Both the position numbers and the translations under genes were made by a program. The notes under the pieces were generated by a model. The model made no database searches and was not told the DNA's origin. It saw only the letters and a program-made list of their open reading frames with translations. Positions 1,909 to 15,959 of a stretch of 37,061 nucleotides of DNA are shown here, piece by piece. The stretch spans positions 1-37,061 of the IMG/VR virus record IMGVR_UViG_3300045988_121094, one strand, 5' to 3'. The DNA is from a virus. Position 1 is the stretch's first letter. The number at the start of each line of letters is the position of its first letter.

Positions 1909-1917
1909 AACTCTCCT

Positions 1918-2091: not shown

Positions 2092-2101
2092 ATTAATCCT
2101 C

Positions 2102-2446: not shown

Positions 2447-2622
2447 ATAAAATCTCTCCAACTCATACCTACATCATGCATGTAACACTCCATACACATT
2501 CCCCATTTTCTTAAATAGTCTTGACTATATACACATCCACATTCAGGACAACAATTTCTTTTCTTCCATCTTGCTACCCTTAAAGCTTTTCTATCTTTTT
2601 TCTTAGGCATATATCTTTTCAT
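2443..2622 (-). CDS. Small Cys-rich (zinc-ribbon-like) protein, 59 aa
   Basis: Hand-found: MKRYMPKKKDRKALRVARWKKRNCCPECGCVYSQDYLRKWGMCMECYMHD.. Start overlaps the upstream stop (TAATG); end overlaps the next start (ATGA). Confidence 0.5.
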   Translation of the reverse strand: MKRYMPKKKDRKALRVARWKKRNCCPECGCVYSQDYLRKWGMCMECYMHDVGMSWRDFI

Positions 2623-3585: not shown

Positions 3586-3597
3586 TTTTATCTCTCC

Positions 3598-5041: not shown

Positions 5042-5050
5042 TACTACCTC

Positions 5051-5575
5051 CTAAGGTCTCATTAAAAATACTCTCTTCTTAGTATTGTTATTTTTAATAG
5101 ATAAACCAGTTATATTTTTATTTTCATCATAGGCTATTTTTTCAACTTCAAATTTATCATTGCATTTCCATATATCCTTGCCATTATTGCCCTTGATAGA
5201 ATACATATTGCAATCATCTTTCTTTACCCAAATAAATGGACTTGTATAAAGTTCTCTACCTATTCCCCAATTAAAACATGCTCTTTTAAAACTATCACTA
5301 GCTTGTCCTTTTTCTTTTTCTGTATTACTCTCTGTTCCTGTATCTTCTTTACTTACCCATTGATACTTTTCTTCATCCCATAAACTAACTATGCAATTAG
5401 CATTTTCTCTTGTATGCTCTCTTTTCCAGTTCATAGGTCCAACTGTTTCATCAAGGATGTTCATATCGCAACGAGCATCTTTGTATAGAAGCAATATACA
5501 GCCTTTTTCAGTAACGCTTTGTACTCTTACATCTATTTCAGTTTCCTTTAATGGTCTAAAAACTAACTTCTCCAT
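5051..5575 (-). CDS. Rad52/Sak-type single-strand annealing recombinase
   Basis: Signature KGQASDSFKRACFNWGIGRELY (G-x-x-SD-x-x-KR-x(5)-GIGR-x-LY). Confidence 0.75.
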   Translation of the reverse strand: MEKLVFRPLKETEIDVRVQSVTEKGCILLLYKDARCDMNILDETVGPMNWKREHTRENANCIVSLWDEEKYQWVSKEDTGTESNTEKEKGQASDSFKRACFNWGIGRELYTSPFIWVKKDDCNMYSIKGNNGKDIWKCNDKFEVEKIAYDENKNITGLSIKNNNTKKRVFLMRP

Positions 5576-5585
5576 ACTACACCTC

Positions 5586-5729
5586 CTAGAATGGTATTAT
5601 TAATCCTTTTTCTATCTCATATAGTAAACTTCTTAATTGCTTGTCTACTCCTTCATAATCCTCATTTTTAAGGTATTCTAGAGTTAATCCAAGCCTAACT
5701 ATTAATGCAAGTTTATTTTCTTCATCCAT
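5586..5729 (-). CDS. Small hypothetical protein (47 aa)
   Basis: Hand-found: GGAGTGGGAAAT-ATG. MDEENKLALIVRLGLTLEYLKNEDYEGVDKQLRSLLYEIEKGLIIPF. Confidence 0.4.
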   Translation of the reverse strand: MDEENKLALIVRLGLTLEYLKNEDYEGVDKQLRSLLYEIEKGLIIPF

Positions 5730-5740
5730 ATTTCCCACTC

Positions 5741-6223
5741 CTATCTAATTCTTAAACTTTCCTTCTGTTCAATTCTTGCTCCTGGTACTTCTATACCATT
5801 ATCAATACTTTCTTTAATCTTTTTCTTATCTTCCTTCTCTTCAATCTTTTTATATTCCATAGGAAGTATGTTAAAATCATCTATAATAATACTAGGAGGA
5901 TTTTTCTTTATTGCTAAAGTAAATATCTTACCTTTAATATCTTTCTTGTCTAAAGCTATCATAGAGCCTTCTAAATAATCCTTTAGTCCTTTTACCTTGT
6001 TTTCTAAAGTTTTTCTTCTAGTAGATAATCTAGTTTCTTCTTCCTTATATCCTTTTACATCTGCTTCTATAGACTTAATTAACTTAACAATATTCTCCGC
6101 CTTATCATCAAAGCTACCTTCTACTTCTTCTAAAGCTGCTTCTACAACTTCTTTAGGTACATCTGGATTCTCTAAAAGTTCCAGTAAGTTTAAATAATTT
6201 TGAGTTAATTCGTATAATTTCAT
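5741..6223 (-). CDS. Siphovirus Gp157-like protein
   Basis: MKLYELTQNYLNLLELLEN...GSFDDKAENIVKLIKSIEADV...FTLAIKKNP...GARIEQKESLRIR matches the Gp157 family layout. Sits next to the recombinase, as usual. Confidence 0.7.
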   Translation of the reverse strand: MKLYELTQNYLNLLELLENPDVPKEVVEAALEEVEGSFDDKAENIVKLIKSIEADVKGYKEEETRLSTRRKTLENKVKGLKDYLEGSMIALDKKDIKGKIFTLAIKKNPPSIIIDDFNILPMEYKKIEEKEDKKKIKESIDNGIEVPGARIEQKESLRIR

Positions 6224-6391
6224 TTACTTATCCTCCTCTGTATCAAAATACAATCTATCATCATCTTCGTTATATCTAATGTTGTTTATATACCAGTCTT
6301 GGTTATCCGCATCATATAGCTTAAATCCTTCTTCATTAAGTATGTTTATTATGCTTACTAGAATTTTTAATAACACTTTAAATGCTTTCAT
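6224..6391 (-). CDS. Small acidic hypothetical protein (55 aa)
   Basis: Hand-found: ATGA overlap with the upstream stop; its stop abuts the Gp157 start. MKAFKVLLKILVSIINILNEEGFKLYDADNQDWY... Confidence 0.45.
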   Translation of the reverse strand: MKAFKVLLKILVSIINILNEEGFKLYDADNQDWYINNIRYNEDDDRLYFDTEEDK

Positions 6392-6642
6392 ATTTCATCT
6401 ACCCCCATTAAAGTTTGTCCATTGTTCTCATATATTCCATAGTTGTCTAAATCAACTTTATCTGTTAGAATATCATTAATGTTATTTTTTAAGTGCTCTT
6501 TCCCTTGTTTGGTCGCTAGGGATTGAGCTATTTCTTTTTTAAGCTCCTCTGATAAAATATCTTTAAGCATTCCTCCTTCTTTTTCTAATCTATCAAGTGT
6601 TCTTGGAACAACTTTATTTACAATGTCTAATATTAATCCCAT
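6388..6642 (-). CDS. Hypothetical protein (84 aa)
   Basis: Track ORF; ends with TGA. Confidence 0.5.
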   Translation of the reverse strand: MGLILDIVNKVVPRTLDRLEKEGGMLKDILSEELKKEIAQSLATKQGKEHLKNNINDILTDKVDLDNYGIYENNGQTLMGVDEI

Positions 6643-6802
6643 ACATTTTCTCCTTTAGTTTTAATAACCTCTTAGTAAATACTGCTTTATCTTTAGTTGT
6701 TATTCTTATTAAAGCCATTACAGCTAGTAAGCTTATTAAACATATTCCTACTTCGTAAGTTATCTTAAGTAAAGTTAATAGGTATATTTTTAATACATAC
6801 AC
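6614..6802 (-). CDS. Possible small membrane protein (62 aa, GTG start)
   Basis: Hydrophobic IYLLTLL..ICLISLLAVMALI. 29-nt overlap with the next gene; weak start context. Confidence 0.35.
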   Translation of the reverse strand: MYVLKIYLLTLLKITYEVGICLISLLAVMALIRITTKDKAVFTKRLLKLKEKMYGINIRHCK

Positions 6803-6804
6803 TT

Positions 6805-7071
6805 CTATCTCAACTCCTCAACTTTCTTTCTAGCTTTATTAAATTCATTTATACAGTTATTACAAAGCTTAACTCCTAAGATAGTTGCCTTTACATTTAC
6901 ATCACCACAACAATGGCAACCTGGTATATGTTTCTTAAGAATTATCATTTCACCTTCTGTGTACAGTTCTAATGGTTGTCATTCTTTGATATTCATTAAC
7001 TTTCTTAATTCCATAGGTATAACTACCCTTCCTAATTGATCTACTTTTCTTACTATTCCTATACTTTTCAT
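6805..7071 (-). pseudogene. AbrB/SpoVT-family regulator with Cys-rich C-terminus, interrupted by an in-frame TGA (6979-6981)
   Basis: Hand translation: MKSIGIVRKVDQLGRVVIPMELRKLMNIKE-TGA-QPLELYTEGEMIILKKHIPGCHCCGDVNVKATILGVKLCNNCINEF...TAG. Both halves together form one SpoVT-AbrB domain. Confidence 0.7.
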
Positions 7072-7112
7072 TTTTACATTTCCCCCTTATATAATTTATA
7101 AATTTCTCATTG

Positions 7113-7415
7113 CTACTGCTCTTGAACTAGTACTTCTGGAGCAGTTCTTTCTATATCTTCACTAGCTATTATTTCTACATTGTTAAAATACCAATTTAAG
7201 CAATATCTCTTTAACTCTTCATGTTCTACAAATACTGGCATATTTTCTTCATCTATTTGTGTTACAAATTCTTTAGATTCACCACCTGTTAAATAGACAT
7301 CTATCCAAGGATATCTTTCATCTATTTCAAAGCTTAATGTTCCAATTTCAACTACTAAAATTATTGATTCCTCTATCTTTATATCTGTATCTGTTGTTTT
7401 TATCATCTTTGACAT
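7113..7415 (-). CDS. Hypothetical protein (100 aa)
   Basis: Track ORF trimmed to the ATG (MSKMIKTT..), which lies 8 nt after GAGGAA and just after the antirepressor stop. Confidence 0.5.
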   Translation of the reverse strand: MSKMIKTTDTDIKIEESIILVVEIGTLSFEIDERYPWIDVYLTGGESKEFVTQIDEENMPVFVEHEELKRYCLNWYFNNVEIIASEDIERTAPEVLVQEQ

Positions 7416-7416
7416 A

Positions 7417-8157
7417 TTAAAATTCCTCACTTTCTATCAATGGTAAAATATTATTTTTCTTTAATAATTCGTATATGAATAACCTTCCTTTTTGTGTCCA
7501 CTTAGTAATCATATTCACATCTTTCATGCCATTTTTTCGAGTTATTGGTATAGTTTCAGAGTGTGTATATCCTTTAGCATGATATTTAGAATATAAAAGC
7601 CATTGTTCACCTATTTTATATTGAATCTTTAGCTCATGAAGTTTATCATTTAATGCTTGTCCACTAAGTCCATAATCTTTAGCTATTTGTGTGATAGTTA
7701 CAAGGCCTTTATTTTTAAGAATAATATCTGTATAATCTGCTTTAGGTTTAAGTTCTCCTATTATTTGCTTCTGTTGAGTATTTTCTAATTGAAGATTCTC
7801 TACTCTCTTATTTGCAATCTCTAAAGCTCTCTTCATTATCATTTCTGGACTATTCCAAGCTTTTTCTACTTCTAAGAAGTATTTTCTAGCTTGTTTACCT
7901 TTTTCATTACGTTGTATCATTGCTATTTCTTTTGCCATGTCTAATTTGATTTCATGATCTACTATTTCTTGAACTCCTCCAAGGGTAGGACATTTTTGGG
8001 TTACCCTTTGATAATCTACATTTTCAGTAAAACCATACTCAATCATTCTTGAAAACCACTTCTTGTATTCAGTTTTAATTTCTAAAAATTCATGTAATTC
8101 TCTACCACTTAAAGTAATATCATTTTCATTAGTGTTAATTTTTATTAATTCTTTCAT
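7417..8157 (-). CDS. Phage antirepressor (AntA-like N domain + KilAC C domain)
   Basis: N-terminal ..LSGRELHEFLEIKTEYKKWFSRMIEYGFTENVDY.. and C-terminal ..TITQIAKDYGLSGQALNDKLHELKIQY.. are typical of Ant/KilAC proteins. Confidence 0.75.
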   Translation of the reverse strand: MKELIKINTNENDITLSGRELHEFLEIKTEYKKWFSRMIEYGFTENVDYQRVTQKCPTLGGVQEIVDHEIKLDMAKEIAMIQRNEKGKQARKYFLEVEKAWNSPEMIMKRALEIANKRVENLQLENTQQKQIIGELKPKADYTDIILKNKGLVTITQIAKDYGLSGQALNDKLHELKIQYKIGEQWLLYSKYHAKGYTHSETIPITRKNGMKDVNMITKWTQKGRLFIYELLKKNNILPLIESEEF

Positions 8158-8190
8158 AGCTTGTCCTCCTTAATTTTTATTCTGTAAACC

Positions 8191-8487
8191 TTATAGACTA
8201 ATTACCTTAGAACTTTCTGATAATATATTTGAAAGTATTCTTTTTATATTTTCATACTTCTCCTTAAGCTCTGCATTTTCTCTCTCTAATCTTCTTTTTT
8301 CTAAGGGTGAAAATCTTTCAAGTTCTACTCCTTCTAATTCAGAAATATATTTAGGATGAAACATAGTCCCTGGAACTCCACTACATGGAGTTATAACATT
8401 TTCTGATATATACCTTCTGATGGTACTTTCATCCTTCCCCCAACGCCTCGCCAAATCTTTAACTGATAATAACCTTATCTCTTCCAT
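8191..8487 (-). CDS. HTH DNA-binding protein (MerR/excisionase-like HTH plus coiled coil)
   Basis: MEEIRLLSVKDLARRWGKDESTIRRYISENV.. Start moved to the ATG after GGGGG; the track extension MKLGVA has no RBS. Confidence 0.55.
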   Translation of the reverse strand: MEEIRLLSVKDLARRWGKDESTIRRYISENVITPCSGVPGTMFHPKYISELEGVELERFSPLEKRRLERENAELKEKYENIKRILSNILSESSKVISL

Positions 8488-8496
8488 TGCAACCCC

Positions 8497-8515
8497 CAGT
8501 TTCATATTTGATACT
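8497..8515 (-). promoter_or_regulatory. Operator-like site OC (AGTATCA-AATA-TGAAACT on minus strand)
   Basis: Near-copy of the site at 8748-8765, placed directly 5' of the HTH gene RBS. Confidence 0.4.
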
Positions 8516-8516
8516 T

Positions 8517-8735
8517 TTAGATAATAAAATATTTATCTATACTTACTCCATATGTTTTATTTAATAATTTCAGTTCTGCTATACTAAAATCACCGCCTGT
8601 CCCATTAATATTTTGGTTTAAAGCAGAGTTTGATTTCTTTAGCAATTTTGCTACTTCACTCTGTTTAATATTATTTTCAACTAAAAATGATTTAAACTTT
8701 GCATATGGTGCTCTCTTTCTATTTATATCTTTCAT
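8517..8735 (-). CDS. Cro-like XRE-family HTH regulator
   Basis: ..NIKQSEVAKLLKKSNSALNQNINGTG.. HTH. First gene of the leftward early operon. Start at the ATG after GGAGGTGG. Confidence 0.65.
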   Translation of the reverse strand: MKDINRKRAPYAKFKSFLVENNIKQSEVAKLLKKSNSALNQNINGTGGDFSIAELKLLNKTYGVSIDKYFII

Positions 8736-8747
8736 TTTTCCACCTCC

Positions 8748-8765
8748 AAGTTTCATATTGATACT
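8748..8765 (-). promoter_or_regulatory. Operator-like site OB (AGTATCA-ATA-TGAAACT imperfect dyad)
   Basis: Half-sites AGTATCA and AGTTTCA are 6/7 symmetric. Lies just downstream of the leftward -10. Confidence 0.45.
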
Positions 8766-8768
8766 TTT

Positions 8769-8796
8769 ATTATAACAAAAGAAGTTTCGAAGTCAA
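8769..8796 (-). promoter_or_regulatory. Leftward early promoter (TTGACT-16 nt-TATAAT)
   Basis: Minus-strand TTGACT (8791-8796) and TATAAT (8769-8774) read directly. Confidence 0.6.
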
Positions 8797-8824
8797 TAAC
8801 TTTTTTTAAGTTTCTGTAAATATT

Positions 8825-8843
8825 TGTTGCAAATATGAAACTT
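8825..8843 (+). promoter_or_regulatory. Operator-like site OA (TGTTGCA-AATA-TGAAACT) overlapping the repressor promoter
   Basis: Shares the core ATATGAAACT with OB and OC. Covers the -35 and spacer of the rightward promoter. Confidence 0.4.
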
Positions 8844-8855
8844 TAGTATTATAAT
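8827..8855 (+). promoter_or_regulatory. Rightward lysogeny promoter (TTGCAA-17 nt-TATAAT)
   Basis: TTGCAA 8827-8832, TATAAT 8850-8855, about 30 nt upstream of the repressor start. Confidence 0.6.
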
Positions 8856-8885
8856 TTAGATATATCTAAATTAAAGGAGATTGTT

Positions 8886-9398
8886 ATGAAACTTATAGGT
8901 GATATTATTAAAGAGTTGAGAATTGAAAATGAACTTACTCAAGAAGAACTTGCCATTAAACTAAATAACTTATATAACACTAAGCTAAATAAAGGCATGA
9001 TATCAAAATGGGAAGCAAATAAATCAGAACCTAGATTTGAATATGTAAAATATTTATCTAAACTTTACAATGTAACATTAGACTATTTGTTAGGATTATC
9101 TGAATATAGAAATAAAGAAGAAGAATTTGCTAATCATAAAAACAAAGTAATAGATTTTACAAAACAACATAATAATTCTTATATAAATGATATTCTAAAA
9201 AATCTAGAAAAGTTAAATGATTTAGGTAAGAAAGAAGCCGTTAAAAGAATATCTGAATTAACTGAAATAAATAAATACATAGATGACAAATCTCATTTAG
9301 AACCTTTTGCAGCCCACCACAAAGAAGGAAACTTTACATCTGAGGATTATAAAAATGATATTGATATTATGAATAATGACGATTTATGGAATAGTTAA
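8886..9398 (+). CDS. Phage repressor, XRE-family HTH (ImmR/CI-like; no S24 peptidase domain seen)
   Basis: N-terminal ..LTQEELAIKLNNLYNTKLNKGMISKWEANKSEP.. Divergent from the cro-like gene and followed by an ImmA-like gene. RBS AAAGGAGA. Confidence 0.8.
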   Translation: MKLIGDIIKELRIENELTQEELAIKLNNLYNTKLNKGMISKWEANKSEPRFEYVKYLSKLYNVTLDYLLGLSEYRNKEEEFANHKNKVIDFTKQHNNSYINDILKNLEKLNDLGKKEAVKRISELTEINKYIDDKSHLEPFAAHHKEGNFTSEDYKNDIDIMNNDDLWNS

Positions 9399-9413
9399 TT
9401 AAAGGGTGATTAA

Positions 9414-9872
9414 ATGACATATGAGAGTTTATTAACTGAGGCTGACAGTTTAGGATTAATAGTTAAAGAAGTTGATTTCAAAACATATGATGGACTTTGC
9501 AAAGGTAATAGAATTGGTATTAATAAAAATTTAAAAACAGATAAAGAAAAAAAGTGTATTTTAGCGGAGGAAATATCTCATTACAAGTTGACAGTTGGTG
9601 ATATATCTGACCTTTCCAAGATAGAAAATATGAAGCAAGAAATTAAAGCTAGACGAGAAGGATATGATAAGCTTGTTGGTATTACTAGAATAATAAATGC
9701 ATTTGAACATGGAGTAAAATCACTATATGAAATGTCTGATTTCCTAGATGTTACTGAAGAGTTTCTAGAAGATGCTATAAAATATTATAAGATTAAATAT
9801 GGTACTTATTTTGAAATAGATAACTATCTTATTTGCTTTGAACCAAACTTGCAAATTATCAAAAAATTTTAA
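9414..9872 (+). CDS. ImmA/IrrE-like protein (variant metal motif AEEISHY)
   Basis: Position directly after the repressor. Motif ..KKCILAEEISHYKLTVGDI.. and ..QEIKARREGYDKLV.. resemble the short phage ImmA subfamily. Confidence 0.6.
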   Translation: MTYESLLTEADSLGLIVKEVDFKTYDGLCKGNRIGINKNLKTDKEKKCILAEEISHYKLTVGDISDLSKIENMKQEIKARREGYDKLVGITRIINAFEHGVKSLYEMSDFLDVTEEFLEDAIKYYKIKYGTYFEIDNYLICFEPNLQIIKKF

Positions 9873-9885
9873 GGAGTTGATATAA

Positions 9886-10986
9886 TTGGATTACAATATT
9901 ACATATAGAAAAAAGGATAACGGAATACAAGTAATAATATCGTATAAAGATAACTTAGGAAAATGGAGACAAAAATCAAAACAAGGTTTTCCAGATAATC
10001 GAGAAGGTAATAAAAAAGCTAAGATAGCTGCTGATTCAATGTTACAAGAATTAAAAAACACCATAGCTCTAAATATTGAAAATGACTATAATGATATAAC
10101 ATTTGGCGAATTTTCCAACCTGTATAAGGAACATATTAATTTTCATTTAGAAGCTAAAACTATAAAGTCTTATAATATTGCTCTTAAAAATTTTGAAAGA
10201 CTAAATAAATTACAATTGTCTAGAATAAAACCAATTCATATCCAAACTTGTGTTGATAACATGATCAAGAAAGGTGTAAGGACATCTTCTATTAAAACTT
10301 ATTTAGCTAAAATTAAGGTTATTTTTAAAGCAGCGATAGAACAATATAATTTATTATCAATCAATCCTGTTAAAAATATAAAACTAGAAAATGATAAAAG
10401 AAAAATAGAGAAAAAGGTATTATCGAATAAAGAACTAGAGTCTTTATTATCTGATATGCTTAATAAATTTAGAAACAAACACTATTATATTATAACTTTA
10501 CTAGCTTCTAAATGCGGCTTAAGAATAGGAGAAATATTAGGATTACGTTGGAGTGATATAGATTATGAAAATAGATTCTTAAATATAGAATATCAATGGA
10601 AGATTAATAAAAATGGCGAACATGGATTTGGAATTCCCAAAAGTGCTAATTCTATAAGAAAAGTCCCTCTCCCTACAATAGTGATAAATGAATTAATTAA
10701 ATACAATAAAGAAACTCCAAGAAATATTGATAATCGAATTCTACCATACAAAAACACCACAGCATTATCAGTAAATCTAGTGAAAAAATATCGTGAATTC
10801 GGATACGATATAACTCTTCATGAGCTTAGACATACATATGCAACTAATTTAATAGCTAATGGAATAGATTTTAAGACTGCTGCTAAGATCCTTGGTCATG
10901 ATATCGAAATGACAATGAAAATATATTCTCATGTTACAGATAATATGCTAAAAAAGGCTAGCCTAGTAATAGAGGATATATCATAA
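9886..10986 (+). CDS. int: Tyrosine site-specific integrase
   Basis: CGLRIGEILGLRWSDID (box I Arg), HELRHTYATNLI (H-x-x-R), LGHDIEMTMKIYSHV (catalytic Tyr). TTG start after AAGGAG. Confidence 0.9.
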   Translation: MDYNITYRKKDNGIQVIISYKDNLGKWRQKSKQGFPDNREGNKKAKIAADSMLQELKNTIALNIENDYNDITFGEFSNLYKEHINFHLEAKTIKSYNIALKNFERLNKLQLSRIKPIHIQTCVDNMIKKGVRTSSIKTYLAKIKVIFKAAIEQYNLLSINPVKNIKLENDKRKIEKKVLSNKELESLLSDMLNKFRNKHYYIITLLASKCGLRIGEILGLRWSDIDYENRFLNIEYQWKINKNGEHGFGIPKSANSIRKVPLPTIVINELIKYNKETPRNIDNRILPYKNTTALSVNLVKKYREFGYDITLHELRHTYATNLIANGIDFKTAAKILGHDIEMTMKIYSHVTDNMLKKASLVIEDIS

Positions 10987-11019
10987 GCAGAAGAATAAGG
11001 TTATTAAAATCTTCTGCTT
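10985..11019 (+). terminator. Stem-loop after int (10-bp stem aagcagaaga / tcttctgctt)
   Basis: Perfect 10-bp stem, 15-nt loop. The T-run comes only after a 10-nt gap. Confidence 0.45.
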
Positions 11020-11029
11020 ACAATTAAAA

Positions 11030-11049
11030 TTTTTGACGATTTTTTGACG
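11030..11049 (+). repeat. Tandem TTTTTGACG x2 (11-bp phasing): candidate integrase arm-type sites, left set
   Basis: TTTTTGACG at 11030-11038 and 11041-11049. Confidence 0.5.
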
Positions 11050-11069
11050 TTTAACAATAGACTCCTTTG

Positions 11070-11102
11070 TTTATAAGCTTCTACATATTTTATAAACTTC
11101 TA
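11070..11102 (+). repeat. Direct repeat TTTATAAGCTTCTA / TTTATAAACTTCTA in the candidate attP core region
   Basis: 11070-11083 and 11089-11102, 13/14 identical. Confidence 0.5.
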
Positions 11103-11225
11103 ACATAAAATATTATTGCTGTTATTTTAAAATATGTAAATCGCCTTAAAAGTATGCAATCTATTGATTTAGATAGATTTTCTCAATTGATTAAAATTAT
11201 AAAACTTAATAATATACGACAATAG

Positions 11226-11245
11226 TTTTTGACGAATTTTTGACG
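11226..11245 (+). repeat. Tandem TTTTTGACG x2 (11-bp phasing): candidate arm-type sites, right set
   Basis: TTTTTGACG at 11226-11234 and 11237-11245, same orientation as the left set. Confidence 0.5.
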
Positions 11246-11254
11246 AGAGAACTA

Positions 11255-11287
11255 TAAAAAAATAGAGTAGAAAATTAATTCTACTCT
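11255..11287 (-). terminator. Rho-independent terminator closing the accessory island
   Basis: 9-bp stem agagtagaa / ttctactct, 6-nt loop, followed on the minus strand by TTTTTTT. Confidence 0.65.
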
Positions 11288-11314
11288 GAATAATAAAATA
11301 AAATTAAGTTAATA

Positions 11315-11731
11315 CTATTTGTATAGCATTTTTAAAATCGTGCTTGTGTGATTTATAGTTAAGGTTGGTTGCTTTAACATACTATAAATCGCATGAGCAT
11401 TATTTTTATATTTTTTCTTATCTTTTAATTGCTCTCTTAAATAATTTTCTATTCCTATAATTTGCCCTCTAGATATTTCTTTATGTTGCAATTTATATTT
11501 GAATAGATCTCTTACTTTTTTATATTCTTCTTCTACTTCTGGCTCTCTTGTATAGTCTATAATTGTATCTTCTAGTTTCTTCTTATATAATGTAGGATTC
11601 ATATGCCCACATCTTATAACCTCTTCTGCTTCAAATGCTTTTCTAGGTGCAACTTTAATTTTATTTACAATATAAAAGGTCACTACCTTTATAGCTGCTA
11701 CCCCGACAATTATTAATAGTAGTATCTCCAT
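11315..11731 (-). CDS. Membrane-anchored hypothetical protein (138 aa), attP-proximal accessory gene
   Basis: N-terminal TM MEILLLIIVGVAAIKVVTFYIV, then a charged soluble domain. No recognisable motif. Confidence 0.55.
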   Translation of the reverse strand: MEILLLIIVGVAAIKVVTFYIVNKIKVAPRKAFEAEEVIRCGHMNPTLYKKKLEDTIIDYTREPEVEEEYKKVRDLFKYKLQHKEISRGQIIGIENYLREQLKDKKKYKNNAHAIYSMLKQPTLTINHTSTILKMLYK

Positions 11732-11768
11732 TTTCTTTCTTCCTTCCTATGTTTATTTAATACCCTAT

Positions 11769-11916
11769 TGTAGTCCTCCTTTCTACGTTTTGTATAAATC
11801 TTTTCTTGTGTTTTGTATAAATATCTTCTAATGTAATAGGGTATGTACTGTAGATTAACTTGTAGAATATAATGTAGAATCTACATCTTAATCCTCGTTT
11901 AAGTAATCTACGTTTT
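11769..11916. repeat. Repeat-dense non-coding locus (iteron / oriT / clt-like)
   Basis: TGTAGAWT x3 in 12-bp phase, GTTTTGTATAAAT x2, TCTACGTTTT x2, and the 15-nt palindrome ATGTAGAATCTACAT. No ORF. Confidence 0.7.
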
Positions 11917-11994
11917 ATGCCTTATAATTCTCATAATTAAAGGATTCTTTCTATCCAATAAAATAAGAAATGTGGAGCATAGCGAGTAAAGTAA

Positions 11995-12576
11995 TTATTG
12001 TAATAGAAGTTGCTCCAGTTTAGAGTATGACAAGTCAGTATAAATAACTTCAAAATTACTAGAATTATACCTAATACCTTTACTTGGTCTTGATATTACT
12101 ATCATTGGAAATGTTCCAAAAAAGTCTTTATAGTTTTCTCTTTCAGAATATAATTTTTCATAGAGTGTATTCATTTTTATATTAGAAGTATAATGTGTAT
12201 AATCTACTTCTAATAAAGTAATATATTTATAATCTTCATATCTAAATAATACATAAGCATCTGGTCTTATTAACCCACCTAGATATATTGGTTCTATTTT
12301 AACATCTATTAGTTTGCAACCTAATCTTTTTAGTTCTTTAAGATAATCATAAATATATAGTCTATGATCATTTACTTTTTTCTCCTGGTAATATACTTTC
12401 TCCTTCTTAGCTTTACTTATATAACTTTTTAATACTCCCATATCTTCTAATTGAACCATTCTCCTACTGGCTCCTTTGTAATTACCTTTAAAGAATAATT
12501 CTGTGGCTTGTCTTAATGTTATAGCTTTATATCCTTCTATCCATTTAAGTACTTCTTTATCTCTATCAGTAATCAA
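11995..12576 (-). CDS. Replic_Relax-family protein (winged-helix N domain + PD-(D/E)xK-like core)
   Basis: ITDRDKEVLKWIEGYKAITLRQATELFF...ASRRMVQLEDMGVLKS and ..IRPDAYVLF...ITLLEVDYTHYT follow the family pattern. 4-nt overlap with the FtsK-like gene. Confidence 0.65.
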   Translation of the reverse strand: MITDRDKEVLKWIEGYKAITLRQATELFFKGNYKGASRRMVQLEDMGVLKSYISKAKKEKVYYQEKKVNDHRLYIYDYLKELKRLGCKLIDVKIEPIYLGGLIRPDAYVLFRYEDYKYITLLEVDYTHYTSNIKMNTLYEKLYSERENYKDFFGTFPMIVISRPSKGIRYNSSNFEVIYTDLSYSKLEQLLLQ

Positions 12577-13877
12577 TCCTCAATCATTCCTTTCCTTATC
12601 TTCTTTTTAATAACTTTAGTTGTTGCTATTTCATTTTCATCTGCTTTATTTTCTGTTTTAGGAATATATAAAGGTAACTCTCTAGCCACTCCATTACTGC
12701 AATCTATAGGCTTTTTATTTAATAAGTTAACTTCTTTTTTAACTCCTGGAATAATTATTTCTGGTACATACTCATGTAAGACTTTAAAATCTTCATCTAT
12801 CCAAGATGTTTTAATAATCTCCATGGCTTTACTAGTTCCATAACATAAACATTCTCTATCTTCTAGCTGTGTTGCATCATCACACTCGATTATATTTCTA
12901 CTATCTATTGAGCTTATTTGTCTAAAGGTAATTCTACATAATTGGCTTTTTACATCACTAGGAAGATTTGTTGTGGTACTTCTTTGAGTAAGACTTAATA
13001 AATGTATTCCACTACTCCTACCAGCTTTTGCAATAGTTAAAATTGCACTCCAACATTTATTTTTAAGTTTTTTATCTTCTTCTGCATCTGAATCTTCTGG
13101 CATAAAAAAGGATATCTCCTCAGTAATGCAATATATTCTTTTCATTTTACTTTTATAATGCTTATTGTAGTGGTTTAAATTCTTTACACCTAATTCCGTA
13201 AATTTTCTAGATCTTTCATCTACTAATTTTGCTAACTTATCTAAATCAAAAGCTACTTCTTTAAGGTTCTTTCCTACAAACTTAACTGGCTTACATTTTT
13301 CAAATAGTCCCACTTCTCCTTTCATAATCTGCAATAAATGAATTTCTATAGAGTTACTAGAGTTATAAATTAAATTAGTTAATATGCTACTTAATAAAAA
13401 ACTTTTACCAGTTCCAGTCGCTCCACCAATAAGTATATGGCACGCTTTAGTAATATCTATAAAATAATCTTCTCCATCAAATGTCTTTCCAATGTATAGC
13501 TGGTTTGGATATGCTTTTACTGGTTTAAATATAAACTTTCCTATATCTTTGTTTATTACTTTCACTTTAACTAGGCTACTAAACCTAATCTTTTCTATAG
13601 TAACTATTCCTTTAAACTTATTTTCTATTGTTTCCTTATTAACCTCTATATCTTTTGGACTTAAACCAGTTGGCATATGAATATCTAATAGATATCCATT
13701 ATCTATAAATTTAACATTCATTACTTGTGGTATAAAATTAGATTTTTTACTGTGTAAATTTAATTCTCCCATAAGTTCTTCCCACTTTTTAATTACTTTC
13801 CTTTTCTTTCTATAGTTAATAGTAAATCTATAATATATACTTGTTACCGCTAGTCCTCCAACTATTGCAAGTTCCAT
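12573..13877 (-). CDS. Membrane-anchored FtsK/SpoIIIE (TcpA/TraB-like) DNA-translocase-family ATPase
   Basis: N-terminal TM (ELAIVGGLAVTSIYY), Walker A GGATGTGKS (nt 13401-13427), Walker-B-like RIYCITEE, and LSLTQRS. Confidence 0.8.
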   Translation of the reverse strand: MELAIVGGLAVTSIYYRFTINYRKKRKVIKKWEELMGELNLHSKKSNFIPQVMNVKFIDNGYLLDIHMPTGLSPKDIEVNKETIENKFKGIVTIEKIRFSSLVKVKVINKDIGKFIFKPVKAYPNQLYIGKTFDGEDYFIDITKACHILIGGATGTGKSFLLSSILTNLIYNSSNSIEIHLLQIMKGEVGLFEKCKPVKFVGKNLKEVAFDLDKLAKLVDERSRKFTELGVKNLNHYNKHYKSKMKRIYCITEEISFFMPEDSDAEEDKKLKNKCWSAILTIAKAGRSSGIHLLSLTQRSTTTNLPSDVKSQLCRITFRQISSIDSRNIIECDDATQLEDRECLCYGTSKAMEIIKTSWIDEDFKVLHEYVPEIIIPGVKKEVNLLNKKPIDCSNGVARELPLYIPKTENKADENEIATTKVIKKKIRKGMIED

Positions 13878-13921
13878 ATTAAACCCTCCATAAATATCTT
13901 TTGATATATATGTATGCTTGT

Positions 13922-13952
13922 ATTTATAGAAAGTTTCCTATATTTATAGAAT
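13922..13952. repeat. Direct repeat TATTTATAGAA x2 (20-bp phasing) in the FtsK-gene upstream region
   Basis: 13922-13932 and 13942-13952. On the minus strand each copy contains TATAAAT. Confidence 0.55.
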
Positions 13953-13961
13953 TTTTATATA

Positions 13962-13999
13962 TAAAAAAGAACATATGATATTTATATATACCATATGTC
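13962..13999 (-). terminator. Weak AT-rich hairpin plus T-run spanning the XRE stop (attenuator candidate)
   Basis: acatatg (13972-13978) pairs with catatgt (13993-13999). The minus strand then reads TCTTTTTTAT. Confidence 0.3.
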
Positions 14000-14176
14000 C
14001 TCAACTTTCTTATTTAATTTCTTAGCAACTTCTAAAGCTTTTTCTAATGATGGCCCTGTCGTTCCTCTTTCCCATGAATAATACGTTTTGTAGTTTATTT
14101 CTATATACTTAGAAAATTCTTGTGGCTCCATCATATATTCTTTCATTCTAATTTCTTTTAATCTGTTATTAACCAC
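13982..14176 (-). CDS. Small XRE-family HTH regulator (64 aa, GTG start)
   Basis: ..QEFSKYIEINYKTYYSWERGTTGPSLEKALEVAKKL.. HTH. RBS AGGGGGTGA. Confidence 0.7.
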   Translation of the reverse strand: MVNNRLKEIRMKEYMMEPQEFSKYIEINYKTYYSWERGTTGPSLEKALEVAKKLNKKVEDIWYI

Positions 14177-14197
14177 TCAAATCACCCCCTAAAATAT

Positions 14198-14227
14198 ATT
14201 ATACATTTATACGAATCAAATTTACAA
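14198..14227 (-). promoter_or_regulatory. Candidate promoter of the XRE gene (TTGTAA-18 nt-TATAAT), with small palindrome ACAATAATTGT (14224-14234)
   Basis: Hexamers read on the minus strand. The palindrome overlaps the -35. Confidence 0.45.
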
Positions 14228-14258
14228 TAATTGTTAATAATTTAATGAGGTGATTAAA

Positions 14259-14357
14259 TTGAAATGTAAAAGAGAGTTTATAAGAATAGATTTAAGTATA
14301 AGTTTAATGTTTATATGTGTACTTAGTTCCTTAATAATTGGATTAATACTAAAATAA
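14259..14357 (+). CDS. Small hydrophobic peptide (32 aa), divergent from the XRE gene
   Basis: GAGGTGA-5 nt-TTG. MKCKREFIRIDLSISLMFICVLSSLIIGLILK. Followed by a hairpin. Confidence 0.35.
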   Translation: MKCKREFIRIDLSISLMFICVLSSLIIGLILK

Positions 14358-14361
14358 AGCA

Positions 14362-14378
14362 CCTAGATTTAATCTAGG
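14362..14378. terminator. Short bidirectional hairpin (cctaga/tctagg) between convergent small genes
   Basis: 6-bp stem, 5-nt loop. T-rich tracts on both sides (better on the minus strand: CTTTATTTTAG). Confidence 0.35.
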
Positions 14379-14388
14379 CACTTTATTC

Positions 14389-14565
14389 CTATAGTTGCTT
14401 TCTTCTCTCTGCAATTAAATTCTCCAGTTCTATTAAATCCTCTTCTGTAGCTTGATTTTTTATAAAACCTCTAGCTGTAGATCTATTTCTTAAATATCTT
14501 GCTTTTTCTCTATTCTTTTCTTGCCATTTTTTATTAGCTTCCGTTTGATTATTTTTTTCTTCCAT
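14389..14565 (-). CDS. Small basic/acidic helical protein (58 aa)
   Basis: GGAGGTTATCTATTA-ATG. MEEKNNQTEANKKWQEKNREKARYLRNRSTARGFIKNQATEEDLIELENLIAERRKQL. Confidence 0.5.
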   Translation of the reverse strand: MEEKNNQTEANKKWQEKNREKARYLRNRSTARGFIKNQATEEDLIELENLIAERRKQL

Positions 14566-14579
14566 TAATAGATAACCTC

Positions 14580-14672
14580 CTAAATAAATGCTGTTATTAT
14601 TGTTATTACTAATGCCACTATACTTATTACTAAGGAGATTATTGCAATTTTAAATGACTTCTTTTCTTCCAT
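14580..14672 (-). CDS. Tiny single-TM peptide (30 aa)
   Basis: GGAGGTTTTAAAA-ATG. MEEKKSFKIAIISLVISIVALVITIITAFI. Its stop overlaps the next RBS. Confidence 0.45.
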   Translation of the reverse strand: MEEKKSFKIAIISLVISIVALVITIITAFI

Positions 14673-14757
14673 TTTTAAAACCTCCATGATATACTTATAA
14701 TAATAAAAGAAGAAGTAAAAAGTTATTTTGTGAAGGGAGTTTCCTCCCCTCTTAGTA

Positions 14758-14904
14758 TTATTGCTTTAACAGTTTTTCTATTAAACTTATCAAGGCGTTT
14801 ATTAGATTAATTAAAGCTGTTATTAATGTGATAATCAAGGTTGTTTGTGTGAGTGTTTTAACCTTATTAACTTTTTTCTTCTTCTTTTTTCTTTGCAACT
14901 TCAT
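14758..14904 (-). CDS. Small single-TM protein with poly-Lys N-terminus (48 aa)
   Basis: AAGGAGGTG-ATG. MKLQRKKKKKKVNKVKTLTQTTLIITLITALINLINALISLIEKLLKQ. Followed by an 8-bp stem with a GAAA loop. Confidence 0.5.
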   Translation of the reverse strand: MKLQRKKKKKKVNKVKTLTQTTLIITLITALINLINALISLIEKLLKQ

Positions 14905-14919
14905 CACCTCCTTACAATT

Positions 14920-14945
14920 ATATTATACTATCGATAGTATAATAT
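14920..14945. promoter_or_regulatory. Perfect 26-bp palindrome (operator candidate) inside the promoter spacer
   Basis: atattatactatc|gatagtataatat read directly. Confidence 0.75.
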
Positions 14946-14950
14946 TACAA
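14922..14950 (-). promoter_or_regulatory. Promoter of the small-protein operon (TTGTAA-17 nt-TATAAT)
   Basis: Minus-strand TTGTAA (14945-14950) and TATAAT (14922-14927), 17 nt upstream of the RBS/ATG at 14904. Confidence 0.55.
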
Positions 14951-14993
14951 TACTTTTTATGTATTTTTTTCTATTTTTATCTATTAATTTTAG

Positions 14994-15044: not shown

Positions 15045-15959
15045 TTATCTATTTATTGTTGCATTTTTTCTTATATATGCTCTAGCACCATCTATGTCAA
15101 GTGCGTAATACCCGCTCATTTCAAATCTTGCAGTTATTAATTCTCCTGCATAGAAAGGTTTAATTTCCTTTGACCATACTCTGCATGGATATTCTGTTAC
15201 TTGTAGTCTAAACCTTCTATATCTTTCATCAGTAACTCCTAAAAGCTTAACATTTGCTTTTTCTACCCAGCAACGCTTACCATCTAATTCTATTGCATAA
15301 GCCCATTGATTTTCTGCATCTGCGGTTAATAAATCACCTTTGTTAAATATTTTTACTTCTCCATCATATGTCATAGCATCACTTTTCATTTTTAAAGGTA
15401 AAGGAAATTTACTAACTTCTATTTTATTACCGCTTATTGCTTCTGCTATAGCCTTGCCAACCACATCTGCTCCAAGTTTATTATATAAAGCCACATCTTC
15501 TGTAGCTTCTACAAAGCACACCTCTACAATAACACTAGCCATCTTAGTTGCTTTTAATTCATACAAGTCACTTCTTTCCTTGACTCCTCTATTTACGAAT
15601 CCTAAAGCACCTATAGCATTAACTATTCTTTGTGCAACTTCTTCATCTAGCTTAATAGCATCACTTTTGCTGTATACCCATGTTTCTGTTCCTATAGCAC
15701 CATTATAGCTATTGTAAGCTTTGTTAAAGTGTATAGAGATAAATATGTCTGCACCCCAAGAATTAGCCTTAGAAACGCCATACACAAGGTCATTATCTTT
15801 ATCCATATTTCCTGGAGTAACATCTAAAACCTCGTGTCCTAGTTGTTTTAAGTATTTAATCAATGCATCTTTTACTTTTCTATCTTCTACAACTTCATCT
15901 ATTAAAGCTTTTGCTCCTGTTGCTAAGAAGTTATGTCCTCCCCTTACTGCTATTTTCAT
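15045..15959 (-). CDS. Endolysin: N-acetylmuramoyl-L-alanine amidase (Amidase_3-type) with C-terminal wall-binding region
   Basis: MKIAVRGGHN...DIFISIHFN...VIVEVCFV pattern. The C-terminal ~120 aa look like two SH3-like repeats (inference). Position after the holin. Confidence 0.85.
   Translation of the reverse strand: MKIAVRGGHNFLATGAKALIDEVVEDRKVKDALIKYLKQLGHEVLDVTPGNMDKDNDLVYGVSKANSWGADIFISIHFNKAYNSYNGAIGTETWVYSKSDAIKLDEEVAQRIVNAIGALGFVNRGVKERSDLYELKATKMASVIVEVCFVEATEDVALYNKLGADVVGKAIAEAISGNKIEVSKFPLPLKMKSDAMTYDGEVKIFNKGDLLTADAENQWAYAIELDGKRCWVEKANVKLLGVTDERYRRFRLQVTEYPCRVWSKEIKPFYAGELITARFEMSGYYALDIDGARAYIRKNATINR

Follow-up and report, generated by a model that had tools for sequence, protein, structure and literature searches.

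A portable cassette encoding an FtsK-like ATPase and a Replic_Relax protein, with a putative role in DNA processing, in a Clostridium temperate phage

The window analysed here, the whole stretch of 37,061 nt, derives from a Clostridium temperate phage in which a cassette is placed between the lysis genes and the attachment site. All cassette ORFs lie on the minus strand and encode an XRE regulator, an FtsK/SpoIIIE ATPase, a 193-aa Replic_Relax/PF13814 protein (termed RR) and a 138-aa membrane protein (termed P138), with terminators on both sides. An ORF check bore out the coordinates and strand given in an earlier sequence-only reading of this DNA, and the two bracketing terminators that it described were found as hairpins at 15037-15004 and 11287-11264 (4 terminator-like hairpins found versus 0.7 expected). 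DNA homology to non-phage copies ends at the hairpin closing the cassette (11264..11287, minus strand), with blastn boundaries at 11258-11286. The same reading had credited the cassette with its own promoters, and promoter-like sites were indeed located at 14950-14922 and 14227-14198, both with 10/12 positions matched, in AT-rich DNA where such matches are frequent (42 found, 27.5 expected). The description of the block as a self-contained accessory unit stands, in that the phage has its own lysogeny module and DnaD/DnaC-type replication genes; it also integrates, and its packaging genes are standard. The block is no oddity, being a common fixture that occupies the same position in many Clostridium and Bacillus temperate phages.

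The XRE/Cro-type HTH regulator (13982..14176, minus strand; HTH_3, E 1.3e-8) was recognized as predicted. It is the usual first gene of the cassette, and is positioned ahead of the ATPase gene in most loci. A promoter-like site (TTGTAA-18-TATAAT; 14198..14227, minus strand, 10/12 positions) lies upstream. A hairpin with a T-run (13967..14002, minus strand), identified by hairpin search, overlaps the XRE stop codon and may terminate or attenuate transcription before it reaches the ATPase gene. Between the two genes, a direct repeat, TTCTATAAATA, occurs twice, 20 bp apart (13921..13951, minus strand), 44-74 nt upstream of the ATPase ATG, a location that would suit an operator or promoter of the ATPase-RR operon.

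Profile searches upheld the assignment of the 434-aa ATPase (12573..13877, minus strand) to the FtsK/SpoIIIE family (PF01580, E 2e-15; phrog_1358, E 2e-51). Its Walker A motif is encoded at nt 13401-13427, and G157-K158 of Walker A, E254 of Walker B, R287 and Q298 of the TQR motif are invariant among 14 homologues, one of which is from Bacillus. The best solved-structure matches were TcpA of pCW3 (6o1x, E 4.7e-14) and FtsK (2iuu, E 4.9e-13). The protein has no gamma/wHTH DNA-recognition domain, and ends in a conserved C-terminal tail, (R/K)KG(M/V)I. The N-terminal transmembrane helix previously attributed to it is doubtful: hydrophobicity is only moderate (KD17 = 1.29, where 1.6 is the usual level for a transmembrane segment) and the segment is missing in the Bacillus homologue. 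Judged from hydropathy, the membrane anchor of the ATPase is probably weak at best, and the strong anchor of the cassette appears to be that of P138.

The RR gene (11995..12576, minus strand) begins with a TTG codon and overlaps the ATPase stop by 4 nt, as had been noted. RR is a member of the MOBC superfamily that combines a wHTH with a PD-(D/E)xK nuclease domain. On its own it scores 25.3 bits against PF13814, exactly at the cutoff and over the N-terminus only; 21 of 24 members of its family match PF13814 independently (best E 2.7e-11). Together with an AlphaFold model (pLDDT 92.8) consisting of a winged helix (residues 1-65) and a restriction-endonuclease-like fold, these matches confirm the Replic_Relax and PD-(D/E)xK assignments of the sequence-only reading. 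Foldseek matched the model to the nucleases Bax1, FokI, McrC and Can2, and also to MarR-type wHTH proteins. Residues H71, P105-D106, E123-x-D125, H128, K134 and Y139-E140 are invariant in the family alignment, and H71, D106 and E123 align with the metal site 'aD...E-I-E' (D...E-x-E) of the TraX-type protein of pTEF1, a remote likeness (hhalign E 0.39).

P138 (11315..11731, minus strand) was expected to be membrane-anchored, and hydropathy shows a strong N-terminal transmembrane segment (KD17 = 2.8), followed in the AlphaFold model by a predicted cytoplasmic four-helix bundle (pLDDT 79.8 overall and >90 across residues 64-137). Homologues of the protein occur in the phage, prophage, plasmid and island copies, and its KN-AHAIY motif is invariant. 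Neither family profile searches nor PADLOC returned a match, and Foldseek gave none below E = 1; from its model, P138 would be an orphan fold, encoded by the third conserved gene of the module.

The 263-bp gap between RR and P138 (11732-11994) contains a conserved core, TATTTTATT (11957..11965, minus strand), 30 nt past the RR stop codon, and a series of phased GTAGA/TCTAC words. Of 18 sequence-distinct lineages, 10 have the core 7-65 nt past the RR stop, where 1.6% would be expected (binomial p ~3e-14), and it is a candidate cleavage (nic) region. The phased array (11848..11913, minus strand) was defined by cluster statistics and cross-locus layout, and is a candidate binding site for RR. On the minus strand it comprises GTAGA at 11911-11907, a degenerate copy near 11896 and GTAGA at 11884-11880, continuing with TCTAC at 11878-11874, 11866-11862 and 11854-11850 at 12-bp spacing. 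The earlier impression of a non-random repeat locus was borne out, as nowhere else in the window are GTAGA/TCTAC copies packed as densely as the five in these 75 bp, and 0 of 300 Markov simulations reached this density; the DNA fold z-score of the array region is -2.7. The layout is identical at +84/85 past RR in three other loci (L026, L027 and L011).

The array is linked to RR, and its words co-vary with the protein. Between the window and locus L004a, the ATPase is 95% and P138 91% identical, whereas RR is only 63% identical (wHTH 50%), and GTAGAT gives way to GTTGTA as the repeat word; in L003, where RR is 90% identical, the word is unchanged. Each RR clade has its own repeat word. In a permuted clade, in which P138 is upstream of the ATPase, the array still follows RR, at the same positions in 4 of 4 loci examined (with p 0.03 in L044 and p 0.00 in L047, and short of significance in L045 and L048), and a search of the gaps on either side of P138 found none. 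These comparisons support the repeat locus as a genuine cis element. Nearer to P138 lies a 23-bp tandem direct repeat, ATTTATACAAAAC... (11787..11832, minus strand), overlapped by a promoter-like site at 11796-11767. This repeat is kept regardless of RR type (ACAAAAC at +175 and +198 in L026 and L028).

Synteny comparison showed that the three-gene block travels as a unit, each of the 31 related loci having FtsK, RR and P138 together. Copies of the cassette (about 11258-14357 of the window) that are 83-89% identical in DNA sequence occur in non-phage C. tertium islands with unrelated integrases, homology reaching to about 14226-14357 in L004, L027 and L012. Diverged copies are found in true C. 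perfringens plasmids and at many Clostridium prophage ends, and the FtsK+RR pair occupies the same lysis-integrase junction in phages of the Bacillus cereus group. This distribution supports a portable module common to plasmids and integrative islands. Nor is the module a rarity: the pair recurs in Firmicute phages and has been mentioned, without characterization, in Bacillus phage genome papers (PMC4113786, PMC9658697, PMC11526630).

We propose, with middling confidence, that the block is a putative portable relaxosome-like module for DNA processing and translocation, made up of a MOBC-type nickase with its cognate site, plus a TcpA/FtsK-like motor. The winged helix of RR would bind the phased array just downstream of its own gene, and the PD-(D/E)xK site (D106, E123, D125) would introduce a nick close by, the most plausible position being the TATTTTATT core or its immediate surroundings. 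The processed DNA would then be received and pumped by the translationally coupled, hexameric ATPase which, lacking a DNA-recognition domain itself, would owe its specificity to RR. P138 may tether or dock the complex at the membrane through its strong anchor, and the XRE protein would govern expression. As the likeliest outcome, an excised circular carrier (phage genome, plasmid or island) would hitch-hike on a resident Firmicute conjugation pore, on the model of integrative mobilizable elements (IMEs), which use a helper pore. The same nick could also serve rolling-circle maintenance of the excised form.

In actinomycete elements, Replic_Relax genes accompany TraB. Membership of RR in PF13814, whose proteins the literature treats as MOBC relaxases (PMC5357655, PMC12857230), counts for the relaxosome-like reading. 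A wHTH is also reported at the N-terminus of TraX, which reportedly binds a set of five direct repeats lying 70-120 bp from nic (PMC12857230); in the cassette, the conserved core lies about 50-115 bp from the phased array. The ATPase gene is directly upstream of, and overlaps, the RR gene, an arrangement that tcpA and relaxase genes also show in IMEs and ICEs (PMC5357655). DNA mobilization or translocation, as first suggested from sequence, still fits best, given that the repeats change together with the Replic_Relax protein in the way expected of a relaxase binding site. The suggestion sits less well with some C. perfringens cassette plasmids, which already carry a MobV (Mob_Pre) relaxase and a VirD4 coupling protein, making a second mobilization module redundant there. 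Several further observations count against transfer. The reported partners of MOBC relaxases are VirD4-type coupling proteins, and those of TcpA-type proteins are RCR-type or TcpM relaxases (PMC5357655), so the pairing in the cassette is unprecedented; N-terminal transmembrane domains are reported for TcpA (PMC12857230), unlike the weak anchor of the cassette ATPase. The likeness of RR to TraX is remote and its Pfam score is exactly at the cutoff, MOB-suite typed the carrier plasmids as non-mobilizable, arrays fell below statistical detection in about half of the lineages tested, and the phage has a transfer route of its own.

It is conceivable, although rather unlikely, that RR instead serves as a site-specific initiator or resolvase whose target is the array and core of an excised or episomal element, starting rolling-circle replication or resolving multimers. 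Segregation of the DNA at the division or sporulation septum, for instance by pumping it into the forespore, would then fall to the FtsK-like motor. The relatives listed for the module belong to Bacillus, Geobacillus, Cytobacillus and Clostridium, all spore formers, but the present data hold no tie between the module and sporulation. The family name and annotations such as 'replication-relaxation' and 'replication initiation protein' favour such a role, as do the grouping of the pair with plasmid segregation genes in Bacillus phage papers (PMC9658697, PMC11526630), an actin-like ALP_N ATPase between the XRE and FtsK genes of C. botulinum prophage copies, resolvase genes adjoining the module in C. 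perfringens plasmids, and the reported catalysis of oriT-oriT recombination by TraX (PMC5714925). However, the C. perfringens carrier plasmids already hold two Rep genes, ParM and a toxin-antitoxin pair, and do not need the cassette for replication or partition. The window phage has replication genes of its own and integrates, a segregation system is superfluous for an integrated prophage, and a centromere adaptor would not require an invariant nuclease site.

The lysis-attachment junction is also a classic position for moron and defence genes, and the cassette has its own promoters and terminators. A prophage-expressed, membrane-associated ATPase and PD-(D/E)xK nuclease that degrade or expel incoming foreign DNA had been offered as an alternative, which we consider improbable. 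Neighbouring genes in the C. tertium islands look defence-like (helicases, an RdRP-like protein), and PADLOC detected weak resemblance of the ATPase domain to the SspH, HerA, MADS and AbiO ATPases; this is generic P-loop similarity, however, and RR and P138 matched no PADLOC model, leaving the alternative without support. On plasmids, the module adjoins transfer and maintenance genes. An array carried on the element itself, co-varying with the nuclease and kept beside its gene, argues for processing of self DNA and not for attack on non-self, and a self-encoded cognate site is unexpected for a defence nuclease. We are similarly doubtful that the pair acts in the lytic cycle, an RR nick leading to concatemer-producing replication and the ATPase handling the DNA, with the copies in islands and plasmids being secondary. 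In phage Fah, the FtsK-like gene reportedly belongs to the delayed genes of the lytic cycle (PMC4113786), which could indicate a developmental role; Bacillus pumilus phages without demonstrated lysogeny likewise carry the pair (PMC9658697), and the genome position is kept in many temperate phages. Yet the terminator-bracketed cassette lies outside the early and late operons of a phage already equipped with standard replication and packaging genes, is exchanged as a discrete unit with non-phage elements at the high identities given above, and is absent from phages of similar architecture, no near-DNA relative of the window phage in the phage collection having one.

Small ORFs occupy the region between the XRE gene and the endolysin terminator. 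The first, orf58 (14389..14565, minus strand), encodes a small basic phage protein of unassigned function (phrog_2277, E 4e-25), homologues of which come after the endolysin in L044-L048. A 30-aa hydrophobic ORF, MEEKKSFKIAIISLVISIVALVITIITAFI (14580..14672, minus strand), with a GGAGG ribosome-binding site, was noticed on reading the sequence and is absent from the earlier account; a Pfam search with it gave no match. The small protein encoded by orf49 (14758..14907, minus strand) has a poly-Lys N-terminus and a hydrophobic C-terminal half (KD17 = 2.42), matched nothing in family profile searches and is peripheral to the core cassette. Positions 14240-14808 of the window match, at 96.7%, the sequence that flanks the C. 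tertium L004 element on its left. The small-ORF unit is headed, past the endolysin terminator, by the promoter-like site TTGTAA-17-TATAAT (14922..14950, minus strand, 10/12 positions), which is preceded by a 10-bp phased repeat, TTTTTATCTA, present in 3.2 copies at 14954-14985.

The window corresponds to the complete, circularly permuted genome (~37 kb, ~29% GC) of a temperate siphophage, which has also been assembled as contigs of 36,997 and 37,084 bp in which the gene for the 138-aa membrane protein P138, attP and int are contiguous. The phage encodes a lysogeny module (CI-like repressor, ImmA-like protease, tyrosine integrase, Cro-like protein, excisionase and Ant) and its own replication and recombination genes, specifying Gam, Erf, DnaD-like, DnaC-like and RusA proteins; no T4SS genes were found in the window. 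The island lies on the minus strand between the Amidase_3 endolysin gene (15045-15959) and the integrase gene (9886-10986). Terminator-like hairpins at 15037-15004 and 11287-11264 bracket the island, in line with the sequence-only reading; the coordinates and motifs of that reading were also correct, with the exception of the 'TM helix' of the ATPase.

From 5' to 3', the island consists of a promoter-like site, orf49, a 30-aa ORF, orf58 (phrog_2277), a second promoter-like site, the XRE gene (13982-14176), the FtsK-like ATPase gene (12573-13877), the gene for the 193-aa Replic_Relax protein (RR; 11995-12576), which overlaps the ATPase gene by 4 nt, a gap of 263 bp and the P138 gene (11315-11731), all four named genes being on the minus strand. 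Toward the integrase, the order is FtsK-RR-P138-attP-int.

The promoter-like site at 14950-14922 is directly preceded by 3.2 copies of TTTTTATCTA, a phased repeat of 10 bp (14954-14985) that looks like an A-tract or UP-element-like bend. Just past the endolysin terminator stand two tiny hydrophobic ORFs on the minus strand, one of 30 aa (14580-14672) that has a GGAGG ribosome-binding site and is absent from the ORF list, and one of 49 aa with a poly-lysine N-terminus (14758-14907); both may code for small membrane peptides or toxin-like products. The stop codon of the XRE gene is enclosed by a terminator-like hairpin with a T-run (13967-14002, minus strand), after which two copies of TTCTATAAATA, 20 bp apart, are found just upstream of the ATPase start (13921-13951, minus strand). 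The hairpin and the repeat pair may form an attenuator/operator arrangement governing the ATPase-RR operon.

The assignment of the 434-aa ATPase to the FtsK/SpoIIIE family was confirmed by profile searches (PF01580 at 57.2 bits, above the gathering score of 24, with E = 2.1e-15; phrog_1358, E = 1.9e-51). G157 and K158 of Walker A, E254 of Walker B, R287 and Q298 of the TQR motif were invariant in 14 sequences, including homologues from Bacillus and from a clade with permuted gene order, and the catalytic motifs were kept down to a Bacillus phage ATPase of 23% identity. The best match among solved structures was TcpA of pCW3 (6o1x; 55.6 bits, E = 4.7e-14), nearly equalled by FtsK (2iuu; 52.2 bits). 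A Pfam search of the ATPase found no T4SS-DNA_transf or TraG-D_C domain, and the NCBIfam plasmid_TraB profile reached 20.5 bits (E = 1.5e-4) against a cutoff of 800. The N-terminal TM helix proposed earlier proved to be only moderately hydrophobic, with a hydrophobicity score (KD17) of 1.29; the strong anchor is that of P138, with a score of 2.8. The single stretch scored 1.29-1.56 among Clostridium ATPase homologues, below the usual threshold of 1.6, and was absent from the homologue in Bacillus phage BtCS33.

Chromosomal FtsK and SpoIIIE carry a gamma winged-helix domain, analogous to the clt-binding domain of TraB. No domain match to such a C-terminal DNA-recognition domain was obtained in residues 364-434 of the ATPase, which comprise a variable, low-complexity linker and a conserved RKGMI tail. 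The FtsK-like proteins share a tail of the form (R/K)KG(M/V)I at their very C-terminal end (window 12573-12590; alignment A5), which may act as a docking peptide for either RR or P138.

The Replic_Relax assignment was likewise borne out, with 21 of 24 RR family members matching PF13814 (best E = 2.7e-11). The window RR scores at the cutoff (25.3 bits) over its N-terminus only, the BtCS33 homologue matches over its C-terminal part (E = 6e-11) and the TraX-type protein of pTEF1 matches at 28.5 bits. In the AlphaFold model of RR (pLDDT 92.8), a winged helix is followed by an alpha/beta nuclease domain. Residues 4-63 adopt an H-S-H-H-S-S topology at pLDDT >94, and a winged helix-turn-helix (wHTH) is supported by MarR-type Foldseek matches and by a match to the wHTH of LrpA. 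Foldseek also aligned the model with the nuclease domains of Bax1, FokI, McrC and Can2, and these matches, the structure prediction and the invariant metal-site residues together uphold the suggested PD-(D/E)xK fold. Residues H71, P105-D106, E123-x-D125, H128, K134 and Y139-E140 were invariant in the RR family, D106, E123 and D125 across 24 sequences.

In the literature (PMC5357655, PMC12857230 and PMC6736028), PF13814 is treated as the MOBC relaxase superfamily, restriction-endonuclease-like with a D-E-E metal site, and the prototype, TraX of pAD1, is described as having an N-terminal wHTH and binding five direct repeats 70-120 bp from nic. TraX also possesses an essential tyrosine, Y181, downstream of the metal site. 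RR resembles MOBC relaxases such as TraX and MobC of CloDF13 in its Pfam family, in the combination of an N-terminal winged helix with a PD-(D/E)xK nuclease domain, and in an alignable acidic D...E-x-(E/D) metal site. A bridged alignment showed RR H71, D106 and E123 to be shared with the pTEF1 TraX-type protein ('aD' and 'E-I-E'), the third acidic residue being D, not E. Comparison of the RR profile with this protein by hhalign was not significant (E = 0.39, probability <1%), and the alignment does not establish that the invariant Y139 of RR is equivalent to Y181 of TraX. RR is also shorter than the MOBC relaxases (193 against 261 aa) and only remotely related to them; it is carried by phages in the company of P138, and its partner is an FtsK/TcpA-like ATPase, not a VirD4-type coupling protein.

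The gap behind the RR gene contains a conserved core, TATTTTATT (11965-11957, minus strand), at +30 after the RR stop, and a repeat array (11913-11848, minus strand) at +82 to +147, in which two to three GTAGA words are followed by three inverted TCTAC words in 12-bp phase. Nowhere else in the window are GTAGA/TCTAC words packed as densely; the density of this cluster was reached in 0 of 300 simulations, and the array is able to form a modest cruciform arm (z = -2.7). Ten of 18 sequence-distinct lineages had the core 7-65 nt past the RR stop, where 1.6% would be expected (p ~3e-14), and it was retained even in lineages with unalignable flanking DNA. With the array as a candidate binding site, the locus would share the layout of a MOBC oriT, in which short, phased, gene-adjacent repeats lie apart from a separate conserved region.

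Comparison of cassette copies connected the array with RR. In L004a, a copy with a different RR type, the ATPase and P138 are 95% and 91% identical to those of the window, whereas identity falls to 63% for RR (50% for its wHTH), and the array has the layout of the window with GTTGTA/TACAAC as its word; at locus L003, where RR is 90% identical, the word is the same as in the window. Clades of RR with (A/T)SRR helices have the word GTAGA, those with ARRRL helices GTTGT, those with CRRRL helices TAGGG or GGATAG hairpins, and those with ARKRL helices ACCTAT. In the permuted clade, P138 is encoded 5' of the ATPase, yet an array of TACCTAT x3 / ATAGGTA x3 with 13-bp phase is still located 3' of RR. 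Its positions agree among the four loci examined, it reaches significance in two of them, and no arrays were found in the gaps flanking P138. The natural swap, the clade-specific words and the retention of the array by RR when P138 moves together indicate that the array is tied to RR. The possibility that the repeats are merely a P138 promoter or operator was rejected on the grounds of the permuted arrangement. It should be noted that arrays were statistically undetectable in approximately half of the lineages tested by a crude scan: neither an exact 5-mer count nor a mismatch-tolerant 7-mer scan detected any in a group of lineages that includes those of C. botulinum type, although hairpins are visible by eye in this group. 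These comparisons make the array a candidate binding site that may set the specificity of RR, separate from the core, and TATTTTATT a candidate nick region.

P138 has a TM helix (KD17 = 2.8) and a confident four-helix bundle in its model. No family was found for it in Pfam, NCBIfam or PADLOC, searches for fold relatives found none, and the PHROGs gave only a sub-threshold match (phrog_20704, E = 0.0048). An NCBIfam TcpD_dom match over 23 residues (E = 0.013) was dismissed as noise, and a 106-aa protein encoded upstream in BtCS33 was rejected as a homologue, having no detectable homology. A 23-bp tandem direct repeat lies 5' of P138 (window 11787-11832). Because copies of both RR types keep it (window, L026 and L028), its reader is probably a factor besides RR, or the repeat belongs to the P138 promoter.

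RR homologues in a large protein collection were almost all from Clostridium, with identities of 90% in C. tertium, ~60% in C. botulinum and ~50% in C. perfringens. The ATPase, RR and a P138 homologue occurred together in all 31 loci compared (24 viral contigs and seven species-representative genomes), and the ATPase and RR genes were adjacent, in that order, in every one. At least 20 of these loci have holin or endolysin genes no more than a few kb upstream, and the cassette usually lies at most 1-3 kb from the prophage end. It is also found in true C. perfringens plasmids of 34-40 kb with their own Rep, ParM and toxin-antitoxin genes, some of which additionally encode Mob_Pre and a VirD4-type protein. 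Finally, the cassette occurs in integrative islands of C. tertium that are free of phage genes, in one case as a tandem pair of elements, and three C. tertium loci (L004, L005 and L027) share the order int, HTH, small ORFs, FtsK, RR, P138. A near-identity DNA search of the phage collection with the island gave no match, a search for relatives lacking the island, based on the endolysin, returned only three poor loci, and look-ups by exact protein sequence recovered no phage but this one.

The phage and C. tertium islands share DNA homology of 83-89%, which starts exactly at the P138 terminator (11258-11286) and ends either at the ATPase start (13878) or just past the XRE promoter (14226-14357). 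Between these boundaries, 2.6-3.1 kb of DNA stand out as a discrete mobile cassette. The integrases of the phage and of the islands are unrelated; for this reason, and because homology ends at the P138 terminator, we rejected the idea that the FtsK-RR-P138-attP-int block derives wholly from an integrative mobilizable element (IME).

In C. botulinum-type prophage ends (L006-L008, L013 and L030), an actin-like ALP_N segregation ATPase is encoded between XRE and FtsK, and a YdjM metal-dependent hydrolase 3' of P138, the latter also in C. perfringens plasmids. The C. perfringens plasmid contigs L019-L022 combine the cassette with a Mob_Pre relaxase, a VirD4-type coupling protein, Erm(Q)-type resistance and an NlpC/P60-SLT-amidase hydrolase of ~1630 aa. 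PLSDB types L009 and L010, which are complete plasmids related to these contigs, as non-mobilizable.

An ATPase-RR pair without detectable P138 is present at the endolysin-integrase junction of Bacillus cereus-group phages such as BtCS33, and in total in 26 phage records from Bacillus, Geobacillus and Cytobacillus. The pair of BtCS33, phiCM3, gamma-like phages and the Andromeda-like phages of B. pumilus resembles the cassette in its ATPase (23-25% identity, motifs invariant), its RR (21% identity, with the PF13814 match), its overlapping genes and its place between the endolysin and the integrase/lysogeny genes; its ATPase lacks the N-terminal hydrophobic segment. A convergent gene directly follows the Bacillus RR, so any cis site must be elsewhere. 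The Bacillus pair is known at annotation level only, being mentioned but never tested in genome papers (PMC4113786, PMC9658697 and PMC11526630). The sequence-only reading had known of no characterised phage-borne example; the module is not unique to this phage, and the gene pair is known from the literature. What is new is the RR-array specificity swap, the portability and the architecture of three components plus a site.

A wHTH nuclease, an array and core, a coupled motor and a membrane protein move together between phages, plasmids and islands, carriers that can already replicate, partition and integrate by other means, and this is most economically read as a relaxosome-like module. We consider it roughly an even call, judging from these comparisons, that the cassette is a relaxosome-like DNA processing/translocation module, its likeliest use being conjugative hitch-hiking of the carrier. 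In this mechanism, RR would act as a site-specific nuclease on its own array and core, by means of its wHTH and its invariant active site; the translationally coupled FtsK/TcpA-like motor, without a DNA-recognition domain of its own, would be the partner of RR; and P138 would be the dedicated membrane protein of the module. The earlier proposal of DNA mobilisation or translocation is thus supported in part, by the family assignments, the portability and the RR-tied array. The main counter-evidence is that RR is remote from TraX, a pairing of MOBC with FtsK is unprecedented, some carrier plasmids already possess a canonical MobV/VirD4 pair, and the membrane anchor of the ATPase is weak.

Like an IME mobilisation module, the cassette is a compact unit of a coupling protein and a relaxase-like protein near an integrase, with no mating-pore genes. 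The ATPase resembles TcpA-type coupling proteins (pCW3 TcpA, Tn916 Orf21) in having a single FtsK_SpoIIIE domain in ~430-530 aa and a gene immediately 5' of a DNA-nicking gene, nicking by RR being predicted, and the C. tertium loci resemble the TcpA-type modules of streptococcal IMEs, in which a compact coupling protein-relaxase unit lies beside the integrase in a small island. In contrast to TcpA, the ATPase has a weak, single N-terminal hydrophobic segment, and its match to TcpA is no better than that to FtsK itself. The tcpA gene is found immediately upstream of a relaxase gene, and the relaxases known to partner TcpA are of the RCR type (MobT and similar) or TcpM, with no PF13814 protein among them (PMC5357655).

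Three other functions were weighed against the relaxosome-like reading. A module for maintenance, segregation or forespore delivery seems to us unlikely, though the best placed of the three. Defence or exclusion, offered by the sequence-only reading as an alternative, fared worse: the ATPase gave only partial matches in PADLOC-DB v2 (SspH, mad8, HerA and AbiO), reflecting generic ATPase similarity, RR and P138 gave none, and the components do not match one system of that database, leaving a defensive role improbable. A function in the lytic cycle is, in our estimate, similarly hard to credit.

It is also conceivable, at long odds, that the cassette serves spore-forming Firmicutes as a self-sufficient device that exports or delivers DNA independently of any pore. 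TraB/clt of Streptomyces plasmids and AICEs and TdtA with its nucleases of Thermus ICETh1 likewise place an FtsK-family motor on a mobile element and, like the cassette, are small modules without pore genes; TraB/clt has a specific cis site of 8-bp repeats. To our knowledge, no pore-free FtsK/HerA-type transfer exists in Firmicutes, and the sequence similarity of the ATPase to TraB is marginal. TraB reads clt by its own C-terminal wHTH, whereas in the cassette recognition would sit in a separate nuclease; for TdtA, nucleases are needed for donation (PMC5365140). By this analogy, the cassette would be, with little probability, a functional analogue of TraB/clt or TdtA with recognition residing in a separate restriction-endonuclease-like protein. 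Just as speculatively, phages, plasmids and islands might spread from one cell to its neighbours, or from mother cell to forespore, without virions or a type IV secretion system.

Should the cassette indeed mobilise the element that carries it, many temperate Clostridium and Bacillus phages, including relatives in C. botulinum and C. perfringens, would gain a second, non-lytic route of spread that is independent of phage receptors, and the line between prophage and IME would be blurred. Such a module would represent a new relaxase/coupling-protein pairing, of a MOBC-like nuclease with an FtsK/TcpA-like motor, which current typing tools miss, calling carrier plasmids non-mobilizable. With three genes, a ~260-bp site and existing natural specificity-swap variants, the cassette offers a compact, genetically tractable test system.

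A CI-like repressor gene followed by an ImmA/IrrE-type metalloprotease gene (window 8886-9872, plus strand) adjoins the integrase gene, and we take the two to be an ICEBs1-style anti-repression pair. No tRNA gene was found anywhere in the window, and Rfam and tRNA scans of the region gave no match. In the C. tertium metagenome scaffold L004, two tandem cassette elements with differing RR and array types (1-11300) suggest accretion; the cargo downstream, a 1034-aa PF05183 RdRP-like protein and several helicases, has a defence-like look. In the window, the stretch that separates the cassette terminator from the integrase gene holds two copies of the motif TTTTTGACGAWTTTTTGACG, 196 bp apart (11019-11049 and 11215-11245), which are candidate integrase arm-type sites in attP.
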